Source: Escherichia coli (GTDB lineage: Bacteria; Pseudomonadota; Gammaproteobacteria; Enterobacterales; Enterobacteriaceae). Taken from it: a stretch of DNA of 64,000 bases. This document shows, one piece after another, positions 14,435 to 50,483 of the stretch. The stretch's first letter is position 1. The number at the start of each line of letters is the position of its first letter. Location: NCBI RefSeq assembly GCF_044324785.1, contig NZ_CP172127.1. One strand, given 5' to 3'. The translations under genes were made by a program, and so were the position numbers. The notes below the pieces were generated by a model. The model saw only the letters and a list, made by a program, of their open reading frames with translations. It was not told where the DNA came from and did not search any database.

Positions 14435-14589
14435 TGGAGGAATTATGAAACACTGTCGGGAATCGTCTGAATGACGGGCACATTTGCGAGCACGCATCCA
14501 GTAATAACACATGAAACTATTTTATCTACGCGTTAGCGATAGACTGCTTGCATGGCGAAAGGAGGTAAGCCGACGATTTCAGCGGGACG

Positions 14590-14740
14590 CTGAAACGGGA
14601 AAGCCCCTCCCGAGGAAGGGGCCATAAATAAGGAAAGGGTCATGATGAAGCTACTCATCATCGTGGTGCTCTTAGTGATTAGCTACCCAGCATACTAAGA
14701 CTACCAGGGCGGGGGAAACCCCGCTCTACCCTCACTCCTG
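14590..14740 (-). ncRNA. sib: Sib antisense sRNA (antitoxin of ibs copy 1); boundaries approximate
   Basis: Minus-strand promoter-like TTGACA (14770..14765) and a CATACT -10 downstream of the ibs stop. Transcript would be fully antisense to ibs. Ends not determined. Confidence 0.45.
14642..14698 (+). CDS. ibs: Ibs-family small hydrophobic toxin (type I TA), copy 1: MMKLLIIVVLLVISYPAY
   Basis: 18-codon ORF after an AAGGAAAGGG SD. Sequence matches the Ibs toxin peptide family. Confidence 0.75.
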   Translation: MMKLLIIVVLLVISYPAY

Positions 14741-14917
14741 AAAGTATGCCTTCACGATAAGATTGTCAATCTGCAGGCTTTGCAGTCTGCGATCCTGCCA
14801 GCAAATATTCTTTGCGAGACGTTACGCAATAATCACATGTGAAACTATTTTATCCGCAAGTCAGCGATAGACTGCATTCAGGGCGAAAGGAGGTAAGCCG
14901 ATGATTTCAGCGGGACG

Positions 14918-15068
14918 CTGAAACGGGAAAGCCCCTCCCGAGGAAGGGGCCTTAAATAAGGAAAGGGTCATGATGAAGTGGATCATCATCGTGGTGCTCT
15001 TAGTCATAAGCTTCCCGGCTTACTAAGACTACCAGGGCGGGGGAACCCCCGCTCTACCCTCACTCCTG
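14918..15068 (-). ncRNA. sib: Sib antisense sRNA (copy 2); boundaries approximate
   Basis: Placed by repeat periodicity (~328 bp) relative to copy 1. Confidence 0.4.
14970..15026 (+). CDS. ibs: Ibs-family small hydrophobic toxin, copy 2: MMKWIIIVVLLVISFPAY
   Basis: Second repeat unit, same architecture. Confidence 0.75.
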   Translation: MMKWIIIVVLLVISFPAY

Positions 15069-15249
15069 AAAGTATGCCTTCACGATAAGATTGTCAATCT
15101 GCAGGCTTTGCAGTCTGCGATCCTGCCAGCAAATATTCTTTGCGAGTCGTTACGCAATAATCACAGAGGAAACTATTTTGTTCACGCGTTAGCGATAGAC
15201 TGCATTCAGGGCGAAAGGAGGTAAGCCGACGATTTCAGCGGGACGCTGA

Positions 15250-15400
15250 AACGGGAAACCCTCTCCCGGAGAAGAGGGCTTTTAATAAGGAAAGGGTTAT
15301 GATGAAGCACGTCATCATACTGGTGATACTCTTAGTGATTAGCTTCCAGGCTTACTAAGAACACCAGGGGGAGGGGGAAACCTCTCCCTAACCCTCACTC
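15250..15400 (-). ncRNA. sib: Sib antisense sRNA (copy 3); boundaries approximate
   Basis: Placed by repeat periodicity; a TTGACA-like box (TGTCAA on + strand) at 15427-15432. Confidence 0.4.
15299..15358 (+). CDS. ibs: Ibs-family small hydrophobic toxin, copy 3: MMKHVIILVILLVISFQAY
   Basis: Third repeat unit, same architecture. Confidence 0.75.
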   Translation: MMKHVIILVILLVISFQAY

Positions 15401-16996: not shown

Positions 16997-17060
16997 ACAT
17001 CGCATGGCGGTTGAAGACAACAGTTCAACCGCCAGTTTAAGCAATCAATATAATGGCTGG

Positions 17061-29535: not shown

Positions 29536-29609
29536 TACTCCATCCTTAGATTATACTAAATTTTGTATAAATCAAATGCGCAGTTTGAACCTGCGCATTT
29601 GATGTTTTA

Positions 29610-35628: not shown

Positions 35629-35665
35629 CGTAGGCCGGATAAGGCGTTCACGCCGCATCCGGCAA
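35629..35665. repeat. REP element between wzc and wcaA
   Basis: CGTAGGCCGGATAAGGCGTTCACGCCGCATCCGGCAA is the reverse complement form of the REP consensus. Confidence 0.55.
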
Positions 35666-46012: not shown

Positions 46013-46113
46013 TAGTTGAATAATCAACCGGATTAATTCTCCGGTAAATAACGACAAAAACAAAATTGGCCGTTTCGGTCAGGGCCAACTACTGCCTGAA
46101 AAAGGGTAACGAT

Positions 46114-47484
46114 ATGAAAAAATTAACCTGCTTTAAAGCCTATGATATTCGCGGGAAATTAGGCGAAGAACTGAATGAAGATATTGCCTGGCGTATTGGG
46201 CGTGCCTATGGCCAATTTCTCAAACCGAAAACCATTGTGTTAGGCGGTGATGTCCGCCTCACCAGCGAAACCTTAAAACTGGCGCTGGCGAAAGGTTTAC
46301 AGGATGCGGGCGTCGATGTGCTGGATATCGGCATGTCCGGCACCGAAGAGATCTATTTCGCCACGTTCCATCTCGGCGTGGATGGCGGCATTGAAGTTAC
46401 CGCCAGCCATAACCCGATGGATTACAACGGCATGAAACTGGTGCGCGAAGGGGCTCGCCCGATCAGCGGCGATACTGGACTGCGCGATGTCCAGCGTCTG
46501 GCAGAAGCCAACGACTTTCCTCCCGTCGATGAAACCAAACGCGGTCGCTATCAGCAAATCAATCTGCGTGGCGCTTACGTTGATCACCTGTTCGGTTATA
46601 TCAACGTCAAAAACCTCACGCCTCTCAAGCTGGTGATCAACTCCGGGAACGGCGCGGCGGGGCCGGTGGTGGACGCCATTGAAGCCCGCTTTAAAGCCCT
46701 CGGCGCACCGGTGGAATTGATCAAAGTGCACAACACGCCCGACGGCAATTTCCCCAACGGTATTCCTAACCCGCTGCTGCCGGAATGTCGCGACGACACC
46801 CGCAATGCGGTCATTAAACACGGCGCGGATATGGGCATTGCTTTTGATGGCGATTTTGACCGCTGTTTCCTGTTTGACGAAAAAGGGCAGTTTATCGAGG
46901 GCTACTACATTGTCGGCTTGCTGGCAGAAGCGTTCCTCGAAAAAAATCCCGGCGCGAAGATCATCCACGATCCACGTCTCTCCTGGAACACCGTTGATGT
47001 GGTGACTGCTGCTGGCGGCACTCCGGTGATGTCGAAAACCGGACACGCCTTTATTAAAGAACGTATGCGCAAGGAAGACGCCATCTACGGTGGCGAAATG
47101 AGCGCTCACCATTACTTCCGTGATTTCGCTTACTGCGACAGCGGCATGATCCCGTGGCTGCTGGTCGCCGAACTGGTATGCCTGAAAGGGAAAACGCTGG
47201 GCGAACTGGTGCGCGACCGGATGGCAGCGTTTCCGGCAAGCGGTGAGATCAACAGCAAACTGGCGCAACCCGTTGAGGCAATTAATCGCGTCGAACAGCA
47301 TTTTAGCCGTGAGGCGCTGGCGGTGGATCGCACCGATGGCATCAGCATGACCTTTGCCGACTGGCGCTTTAACCTGCGCTCCTCCAACACCGAACCGGTG
47401 GTGCGGTTGAATGTGGAATCGCGCGGTGATGTGCCGCTGATGGAAGCGCGAACGCGAACTCTGCTGACGTTGCTGAACGAGTAA
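46114..47484 (+). CDS. cpsG: phosphomannomutase CpsG (ManB), 456 aa from ATG 46114
   Basis: [21 protein letters not shown] start; active-site TASHNP motif. Confidence 0.95.
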
Positions 47485-47538
47485 TGTCGGATCTTCCCTT
47501 ACCCCACTGCGGGTAAGGGGCTAATAACAGGAACAACG

Positions 47539-48933
47539 ATGACAAATCTAAAAAAGCGCGAGCGAGCGAAAACCAATGCATCGTTAATCTCTATGGTGCA
47601 ACGCTTTTCAGATATCACCATCATGTTTGCCGGACTATGGCTGGTTTGCGAAGTCAGCGGACTGTCATTCCTCTACATGCACCTGTTGGTGGCGTTGATT
47701 ACGCTGGTGGTGTTCCAGATGCTGGGCGGCATCACCGATTTTTATCGCTCATGGCGCGGTGTTCGGGCAGCGACAGAATTTGCCCTGTTGCTACAAAACT
47801 GGACCTTAAGCGTGATTTTCAGCGCCGGACTGGTGGCGTTCAACAATGATTTCGATACGCAACTGAAAATCTGGCTGGCGTGGTATGGGCTGACCAGCAT
47901 CGGACTGGTGGTTTGCCGTTCATGTATTCGCATTGGGGCGGGCTGGCTGCGTAATCATGGCTATAACAAGCGTATGGTCGCCGTAGCGGGGGATTTAGCC
48001 GCCGGACAAATGCTGATGGAGAGCTTCCGTAATCAGCCGTGGTTAGGGTTTGAAGTGGTGGGCGTATACCACGACCCAAAACCGGGCGGCGTTTCTAACG
48101 ACTGGGCGGGCAATCTGCAACAGCTGGTAGAGGATGCAAAAGCGGGCAAGATTCATAACGTCTATATCGCGATGCAGATGTGCGACGGCGCGCGAGTGAA
48201 AAAACTGGTCCATCAACTGGCGGACACCACCTGTTCGGTGCTGCTGATCCCCGATGTCTTTACCTTCAACATTCTCCATTCCCGTATCGAAGAGATGAAC
48301 GGCGTACCGGTGGTGCCGCTTTACGACACTCCGCTTTCCGGGGTTAACCGCCTGCTCAAACGTGCGGAAGATATTGTGCTGGCAACGCTGATCCTGCTGC
48401 TGATCTCCCCGGTGCTGTGCTGCATTGCGCTGGCGGTGAAACTCAGTTCATCTGGGCCGGTTATTTTCCGCCAGACTCGCTACGGCATGGACGGCAAGCC
48501 GATCAAAGTGTGGAAGTTCCGTTCCATGAAAGTGATGGAGAACGACAAAGTGGTGACTCAGGCGACGCAGAACGATCCGCGCGTCACCAAAGTGGGGAAC
48601 TTTCTGCGCCGCACCTCGCTGGATGAATTGCCGCAGTTTATCAATGTGCTGACCGGGGGGATGTCGATTGTCGGTCCACGTCCGCACGCGGTAGCGCATA
48701 ACGAACAGTATCGCCAGCTCATTGAAGGCTACATGCTGCGCCATAAAGTGAAACCGGGCATTACCGGCTGGGCGCAGATTAATGGCTGGCGCGGCGAAAC
48801 CGACACGCTGGAGAAAATGGAAAAACGCGTCGAGTTCGACCTTGAGTACATCCGCGAGTGGAGCGTCTGGTTCGATATCAAAATCGTTTTCCTGACGGTA
48901 TTCAAAGGCTTCGTTAACAAAGCGGCATATTGA
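47539..48933 (+). CDS. wcaJ: undecaprenyl-phosphate glucose-1-phosphate transferase WcaJ, 464 aa
   Basis: Polyprenyl-phosphate hexose-1-phosphate transferase C-terminal domain (GPRPHAV...). Confidence 0.93.
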   Translation: MTNLKKRERAKTNASLISMVQRFSDITIMFAGLWLVCEVSGLSFLYMHLLVALITLVVFQMLGGITDFYRSWRGVRAATEFALLLQNWTLSVIFSAGLVAFNNDFDTQLKIWLAWYGLTSIGLVVCRSCIRIGAGWLRNHGYNKRMVAVAGDLAAGQMLMESFRNQPWLGFEVVGVYHDPKPGGVSNDWAGNLQQLVEDAKAGKIHNVYIAMQMCDGARVKKLVHQLADTTCSVLLIPDVFTFNILHSRIEEMNGVPVVPLYDTPLSGVNRLLKRAEDIVLATLILLLISPVLCCIALAVKLSSSGPVIFRQTRYGMDGKPIKVWKFRSMKVMENDKVVTQATQNDPRVTKVGNFLRRTSLDELPQFINVLTGGMSIVGPRPHAVAHNEQYRQLIEGYMLRHKVKPGITGWAQINGWRGETDTLEKMEKRVEFDLEYIREWSVWFDIKIVFLTVFKGFVNKAAY

Positions 48934-50413: not shown

Positions 50414-50483
50414 ATGGCTGTTTTCGGTTCCGGCAACGAAAACAACAACTAACCTCACCTGGCATCAAATTTATGAGGAAAAA

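Follow-up and report, generated by a model that had tools for sequence, protein, structure and literature searches.

Why should a stable stem-loop without the features of a terminator stand in the middle of a capsule operon, and does it serve the operon in any way? The question arises from the 54-nt spacer between cpsG and wcaJ in a stretch of 64,000 nt of Escherichia coli DNA (the window), which holds the E. coli colanic-acid (wca/cps) cluster on its plus strand. The coding sequence of cpsG (phosphomannomutase, 46114-47484, plus strand, named cpsG in matching E. coli records) ends with the stop codon UAA at 47482-47484. It is followed on the same strand by 10 unpaired nucleotides (UGUCGGAUCU, 47485-47494), the hairpin, and 18 nt (47521-47538) that lead to the AUG of wcaJ (undecaprenyl-phosphate glucose phosphotransferase, 47539-48933, plus strand, annotated in the E. 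coli records), the gene directly 3' of the hairpin. The hairpin core, CCCTTACCCCACTGCGGGTAAGGG, lies at 47496-47519 (plus strand). A C-rich 5' arm (UCCCUUACCC, 47495-47504) and a G-rich 3' arm (GGGUAAGGGG, 47511-47520) enclose a 6-nt loop, CACUGC (47505-47510), and are joined by nine Watson-Crick pairs (47496-47504 with 47511-47519), six of them G-C, and by a U47495·G47520 wobble at the base. RNAfold assigns the hairpin -17.1 kcal/mol, and the minimum free energy structure equals the centroid structure. The hairpin is thus placed 10 nt 3' of the cpsG UAA, 18 nt 5' of the wcaJ AUG and 8 nt 5' of the wcaJ Shine-Dalgarno sequence AGGA (47529-47532), which stays unpaired in the predicted fold.

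A preliminary description of this DNA had reported a perfect 8-bp stem inside the operon. The location was correct and both 8-bp arms are present (CCCTTACC, 47496-47503, and GGTAAGGG, 47512-47519), while the extra pair C47504-G47511 and the U·G base make the hairpin slightly stronger than was claimed. K-12 MG1655 has an identical spacer, with the same hairpin at 2121573-2121598 on the complement and no annotated feature between cpsG and wcaJ. A covariance-model search of Rfam with the hairpin gave no match at E-values up to 10. Two open reading frames on the minus strand that overlap the hairpin (47369-47581 and 47499-47624) were discarded, as they run antisense to two well-annotated genes.

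That the hairpin exceeds chance is suggested, not compellingly, by the window sequence, and it is the comparative data that make the case. The 64-kb window has seven perfect hairpins with a stem of 9 bp or more and a loop of 3-8 nt, where 100 dinucleotide shuffles give 1.48 +/- 1.14, and the odds of such a hairpin landing in a given 54-nt spacer are about 0.1%. The pattern CCCTNNCCC-N3-9-GGGNNAGGG is found once in the window and never in 100 shuffles. The local fold z-score of the hairpin region is modest (-1.7 to -2.0), since shuffled sequences with the C-runs and G-runs left in place fold well too.

One genome per species was scanned, which gave 80 loci with a WcaJ orthologue; they come from unnamed MAGs and from about 20 named genera of Enterobacteriaceae, and 77 cpsG-wcaJ spacers were extracted from them. 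When a fold of -14 kcal/mol or better is taken as structured, 76 of the 77 spacers are structured, compared with 24 of 73 wzxC-wcaK spacers taken from the same loci as a control; the species are related, so that retention counts overstate independence, and the Fisher test (7e-20) ignores shared ancestry. The control spacer has a median length of 32 nt, contains BoxC and REP elements sporadically and behaves like an ordinary home of selfish repeats. At cpsG-wcaJ the hairpin has been lost in one species only, Citrobacter sp. MGH106 (L022), which has a spacer of 39 nt and in which, given this loss, the hairpin is dispensable. The shortest structured spacers, 46-49 nt in length, hold little beyond the hairpin and the ribosome-binding site. 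Spacing around the structure is constrained: its start is a median 10 nt past the stop codon, with distances up to 15 nt in 64 of the 76 spacers and longer ones in 12, and its end is a median 21 nt (IQR 18-24) before the AUG.

What stays constant is that a stable structure occupies the position; the presence of a third sequence block and its orientation vary. Three-block BoxC elements, allowing at most 2 substitutions, were found in 23 of the 77 spacers; in 6 they lie solely on the sense strand, in 6 solely on the antisense strand, and the other 11 have them on both strands or as inverted pairs. Two-block hairpins, among them that of the window, account for 18 spacers. Another 36 were classed as other, and many of these are degenerate relatives or shorter C-run/G-run hairpins, as in the Citrobacter freundii group, Kosakonia and Lelliottia. 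Unrelated structures occupy the junction in Siccibacter, Franconibacter and Mangrovibacter, a REP-like structure is found in Cedecea and a G-first hairpin in some Buttiauxella.

Individual loci show what else can happen at this junction. In two of them the cpsG-wcaJ spacer has grown to 357 nt (L053, 1644-2000) and 247 nt (L030, 1754-2000) by tandem units of about 65 nt and 45 nt, respectively, added to BoxC arms; BoxC-linked local expansion is under way at the junction. In Citrobacter youngae CCUG 30791 (L013) and Citrobacter sp. Cu233 (L015) only the last ~70 nt of cpsG are left (around 1800-2000 of each locus), and the gene is apparently truncated or replaced upstream, yet the spacer hairpin and wcaJ are intact.

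Comparison of close relatives gives signs that the structure is under purifying selection. The hairpin arms are identical to those of E. coli at 17 of 18 positions in Salmonella arizonae and at all 18 in Citrobacter sedlakii and one Citrobacter amalonaticus, while identity at four-fold degenerate sites in the neighbouring wcaJ is only 54-59% (binomial P 2e-4 to 5e-5). In an alignment of 15 sequences from Escherichia, Salmonella and Citrobacter, 97.3% of the cells are paired versus 46-65% when the partners are slid, and these pair counts are slightly conservative, as two Citrobacter rows are mis-registered in the MAFFT alignment used (A2). Compensatory pair changes are carried by other Citrobacter, and at two pairs both partners have been replaced, C-G by U-A and A-U by G-C; these may go back to no more than one or two events. 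The loop differs in almost every lineage and is unconserved in the alignment. The most conserved part of the spacer is ACAGGAAC(A/C)ACG, and 3' of the hairpin the alignment shows nothing conserved except the ribosome-binding site. In 50 of 74 spacers the more stable fold is that of the sense RNA and not of the antisense (Wilcoxon P 5e-4, a weak result as the lineages are related), and this strand bias hints weakly at action at the RNA level. Conservation and covariation suit a hairpin at the DNA level equally well as one in RNA. The preliminary description had found the hairpin more in keeping with an mRNA stability or processing element, or a polarity modulator, than with a terminator, and had counted missing conservation of the structure in related genomes as evidence against this; the retention in 76 of 77 spacers, with compensatory changes, goes the other way. 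Its reading is partly supported: the hairpin is conserved and is not a terminator, and the function that it proposed is a putative one. What that description missed is the kinship with a known family of palindromes.

The family is BoxC, also described as PIT (potential intrastrand triplex) or TMECO, with the consensus CCCTCNCCC-N3-6-GGGNGAGGG-N3-GGGNGAGGG and no function assigned to it (PMC4666352). The C-rich arm of the hairpin is one base off the C block CCCTCNCCC and the G-rich arm one base off the G block GGGNGAGGG; the window reads CCCTTACCC-N6-GGGTAAGGG, with one mismatch in each block, and the two mismatched bases pair with each other. A BoxC search that allows one mismatch per arm finds the window hairpin, while a search with the strict consensus does not. 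The second G block, GGGNGAGGG, which would be the third strand of a triplex, is absent, GGGTAAGGG being followed by GCTAATAACAGG, and a search for the double G block with 3 mismatches allowed returned nothing at the hairpin. The element is therefore classed as a plain hairpin of two blocks. The table of 23 TMECOs in MG1655 does not include it, and its 45-nt region has no dispersed copies, with one match per genome in 4,129 genomes. Strict TMECO membership is ruled out by the missing third block and by the absence from the MG1655 table, and a dispersed repeat is ruled out because the hairpin is single-copy in each genome. When Rfam was searched with the long BoxC forms, all matches were to eukaryotic miRNA precursor hairpins and fell below threshold.

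As judged from its sequence, the hairpin is best described as a two-block, hairpin-only derivative of BoxC/PIT/TMECO, since it lacks the second G block and neither the MG1655 TMECO list nor Rfam contains it. Like members of the family it is intergenic, has a C-run arm followed by a G-run arm and a 6-nt loop within the range of the consensus, and 23 of the 77 spacers, as well as 9% of E. coli genomes, have true elements or inverted pairs at the orthologous site. The collapse of a pair into a plain hairpin is also described for the family, in which inverted TMECO pairs are often partly deleted with a hairpin remaining (PMC4666352). Unlike the family, the hairpin has no second G block and its own sequence is undispersed, and unlike typical BoxC loci, which come and go between strains, the cpsG-wcaJ site is filled in almost every species examined. 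A literature search on BoxC/TMECO found nothing beyond PMC4666352, and the TMECO and RepRanger supplementary tables do not mention cpsG or wcaJ.

Within E. coli the spacer exists in two forms. Most of the genomes that possess the junction have the short hairpin allele, which is present in 4,129 of 5,426 complete genomes, always as a single copy. The other allele, with a cpsG-wcaJ spacer of 134 nt, was found in 509 of the 5,426 genomes (9%), for example in strain 2012C-4227 (L001, 401-534), and its coding flanks are 99.5% identical to those of the window; the replaced patch is confined to the spacer. The long allele carries the BoxC element CCCTCGCCC-CTTT-GGGAGAGGG-CCG-GGGTGAGGG (the stretch reads CCCTCGCCCCTTTGGGAGAGGGCCGGGGTGAGGGG) and, upstream of it, a degenerate inverted copy; the arms of the window hairpin align with the outer arms of this inverted pair. 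The BoxC core of the long allele has a median of 2 and up to 6 matching places per genome, other BoxC sites among them. A search of the 77 spacers for a donor turned up no match beyond the generic BoxC core. The short form is the one present in the outgroups E. whittamii, Salmonella and Citrobacter, and the long allele may have originated by insertion, by conversion from another BoxC locus or as an old polymorphism. Of 15 short-allele E. coli sequences that were read, the window and K-12 included, one (strain PSUO2) has a change in the stem and the others vary in the loop or flanks. The loop variants in E. coli are CAUUGC, CCACUGC, CACUUGC, UACUGC and UCUGC, and the loop differs between genera too. 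In E. coli CEC13002 (L004, 1601-2863) the place of wcaJ after cpsG is taken by a defective ISAs1 transposase gene and perB, and some of the ~780 E. coli genomes without the junction may be rearranged in the same way.

What, then, could keep a structure at this junction? The reading that we favour, with a confidence that stops a little short of evens, is that selection maintains an element of the junction which probably acts as a REP-like, non-terminating intercistronic RNA stem-loop, either as a barrier to mRNA decay or as a setter of expression ratios. REP elements stabilise upstream mRNA, and those within 15 nt of a stop codon affect translation, according to the summary in PMC12306157. Several properties are shared with REP/BIME elements. 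The hairpin is a stable stem-loop without a U-tract, it lies within an operon, 10 nt past a stop codon, and it precedes a gene that is likely needed less; moreover REPs sit in spacers of the same operon, between wzc and wcaA in the window and between wzxC and wcaK in K-12. The REP-like reading rests on these parallels, namely that REPs act in this way elsewhere and are found in other spacers of the operon, and that both ribosome sites are left free by the fold. The hairpin differs from REP/BIME in that it is unrelated to their consensus (a palindrome of the GCCGGATG... type) and to the REPs of the wzc-wcaA spacer and the K-12 wzxC-wcaK spacer, consists of one short stem and not a pair, and is single-copy. 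A stem of 9-10 bp is a weaker block to exonucleases than REP pairs are.

The following course of events is conceivable. The long transcript would be cut downstream of the hairpin, the stem-loop would stop 3'-to-5' exonucleases, and the wza...cpsG segment would then outlive the wcaJ-wcaM segment. The result would be a step from high to low expression between the soluble sugar-nucleotide enzymes and WcaJ, the membrane initiating transferase. This transferase is harmful when over-made, and the REP of malE-malF is the classic intercistronic mRNA stabiliser. The hairpin, 10 nt past the stop codon and 8 nt before the Shine-Dalgarno sequence, is placed between two ribosome sites and could stand between a terminating and an initiating ribosome with the wcaJ start left unmasked. 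Structure, position, conservation, covariation, the kinship to BoxC and the lack of terminator features are read directly from the sequences; action in RNA, and decay protection in particular, we infer from the analogy with REPs. The Term-seq supplements of PMC7815308 list no 3' ends for cpsG, wcaJ, cpsB or wzxC, which is uninformative as the operon was probably silent there, and their lack of entries near several K-12 BoxC coordinates is uninformative as well. Literature searches did not find wcaJ and cpsG together with a stem-loop, and found nothing relevant for colanic acid with Term-seq or for cpsG with RNase E.

A wider claim can be made, and we regard it as possible although rather doubtful: that cpsG-wcaJ is the first site where a palindrome of the BoxC type has a selected and conserved job, as a structural RNA element that sets an expression step between the sugar-nucleotide genes and the membrane assembly genes of the colanic-acid operon, and of which lineages have swapped the forms. 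A plain hairpin, a single BoxC, an inverted BoxC pair and an unrelated palindrome would then be interchangeable. BoxC/PIT/TMECO elements have been known for about 30 years, and most copies vary between strains and are hence hard to study; it is unusual for the family that a BoxC-type structure is held at one junction in about 20 named genera with signs of purifying selection. If true, these repeats, which have gone without a function since the 1990s, would gain one, together with a model locus at which it can be tested. Because the structure is retained with signs of selection, cpsG-wcaJ is a natural site at which the action of such palindromes in RNA can be tested. The matter is also relevant to the balance, in a capsule operon of 20 kb, between abundant soluble enzymes and a membrane initiating transferase.

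Among the alternatives to an RNA element, the one that survives best is that the hairpin is a neutral relic, a collapsed inverted BoxC/TMECO pair whose arms persist as palindromes lose their insides, and which has no function in DNA or RNA. The dimorphism within E. coli speaks for such a history, as 509 of 5,426 genomes hold a BoxC element and a degenerate inverted copy with outer arms that align to those of the window; inverted TMECO pairs often shrink to a hairpin, and no function was found for TMECO elements (PMC4666352). The sporadic occurrence of BoxC and REP elements in the wzxC-wcaK spacer and the loss of the hairpin in Citrobacter sp. MGH106 also agree with neutrality. We nevertheless consider it unlikely. 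Arms that remain identical at 17-18 of 18 positions where four-fold sites have fallen to 54-59%, differences between arms that are compensatory, and a structure present in 76 of 77 spacers but in only 24 of 73 control spacers are hard to reconcile with decay, and the structures that are not of BoxC origin in Siccibacter, Franconibacter, Mangrovibacter and Cedecea indicate that it is structure that was kept, not one repeat. Should the hairpin be inert, it would still illustrate cleanly the decay of a BoxC pair into a hairpin.

The short distance to the cpsG stop codon allows another explanation, which is that the hairpin meets the ribosome terminating on cpsG, slows its release and lowers the level of CpsG; trans-translation or mRNA cleavage might follow, as for REPs located at most 15 nt from stop codons. 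The 15-nt rule for REPs is given in PMC12306157, which cites Liang, Rudd and Deutscher (2015), and REP-like hairpins that modulate translation are recognised by a stem-loop that starts less than 16 nt after the stop codon. The start is at 10 nt here, and the distance is at most 15 nt in 64 of 76 spacers. It is more than 15 nt in the other 12, however, and a compact spacer may by itself explain short distances. There is also no evident reason to throttle CpsG specifically, and we find the explanation improbable.

The hairpin might instead act on transcription. The related group 1 capsule cluster has an attenuating stem-loop downstream of wzc, and a JUMPStart/ops element is a feature of colanic-acid operons. 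The nascent hairpin could cause RNA polymerase to pause, or release a part of the polymerases, so that less of wcaJ-wcaM is transcribed, with read-through dependent on RfaH, the antitermination factor of the operon. A GC-rich hairpin in a long operon that is transcribed as a unit would be suited to this, and a REP hairpin is present in the wzc-wcaA spacer of the same operon. The spacers that were read show no U-tract 3' of the stem, however, and downstream of the hairpin only the ribosome-binding site is conserved. Earlier work on PIT/BoxC, as far as it is summarised in PMC4666352, detected neither promoter nor terminator activity and no effect in vivo. A pause or partial attenuator is, in our estimate, quite unlikely.

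Roles at the DNA level have to be considered because the colanic-acid and O-antigen region recombines often. The hairpin could form a cruciform, be a hot spot for recombination or instability, or serve as a landing site for BoxC. TMECO loci have been linked with raised local variability (PMC4666352), the E. coli spacer is dimorphic (4,129 short and 509 long BoxC alleles between coding flanks that are 99.5% identical), and the spacer has undergone the large expansions, to 247 nt (L030) and 357 nt (L053), in some species. We hold such roles to be very unlikely: a triplex would require the third block, which is absent from the window hairpin, a cruciform of 9 bp would hardly extrude, the better folding of the sense strand hints at RNA, and instability leaves the purifying selection on the arms unexplained.

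That the hairpin is an intrinsic (Rho-independent) terminator closing a cpsG-proximal transcription unit can, in spite of its GC-rich stem (6 of 9 pairs G-C), be dismissed with near certainty, and the preliminary description had already leaned against it: a U-tract 3' of the stem is missing on both strands (the tail reads GCUAAUAACAGG, or GCUAAUAAC) and from the orthologous spacers read, and a promoter and terminator scan found no site within the spacer. With intrinsic terminators and the post-wzc attenuator of group 1 capsule and colanic-acid clusters the hairpin shares a GC-rich stem in a gap of a capsule operon; it differs in having no U-tract and in lying at another junction.

Other elements of the operon and the window deserve mention. 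An algC RNA motif (RF02929) is located at 46060-46109 (plus strand) in the cpsB-cpsG spacer, just 5' of the cpsG start at 46114, with 74.2 bits against a gathering score of 33.8, and it is also found upstream of cpsG in the Enterobacter, Kluyvera and Kosakonia loci. With the algC motif on its 5' side and the hairpin on its 3' side cpsG is flanked by RNA structure on both sides, and it is speculative that a processed cpsG segment is capped by structure at both ends. The wzc-wcaA spacer (92 nt) contains a REP-type palindrome, GCCGGATAAGGCGTTCACGCCGCATCCGGC, at 35634-35663 (plus strand), which has no U-tract. That the window is not K-12 itself is seen from the wzxC-wcaK spacer, which is 70 nt here (50414-50483, plus strand) and 275 nt in MG1655 (L085, 2406-2680), where it holds two REP pairs; in other genera this spacer is 14-271 nt long and sometimes has BoxC elements or pairs.

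Outside the operon, three identical 8-bp hairpins, TTTCAGCGGGACGCTGAAA, are found at 14577-14595, 14905-14923 and 15233-15251, exactly 328 nt apart, a spacing that suggests a tandemly repeated segment. Just past them, at 15380-15400 on the minus strand, lies a degenerate BoxC-like double G block with 2 mismatches. The longest perfect hairpins of the window have a 13-bp stem (ATCAAATGCGCAG...CTGCGCATTTGAT, 29571-29603) and an 11-bp stem (TGGCGGTTGAA...TTCAACCGCCA, 17005-17034).
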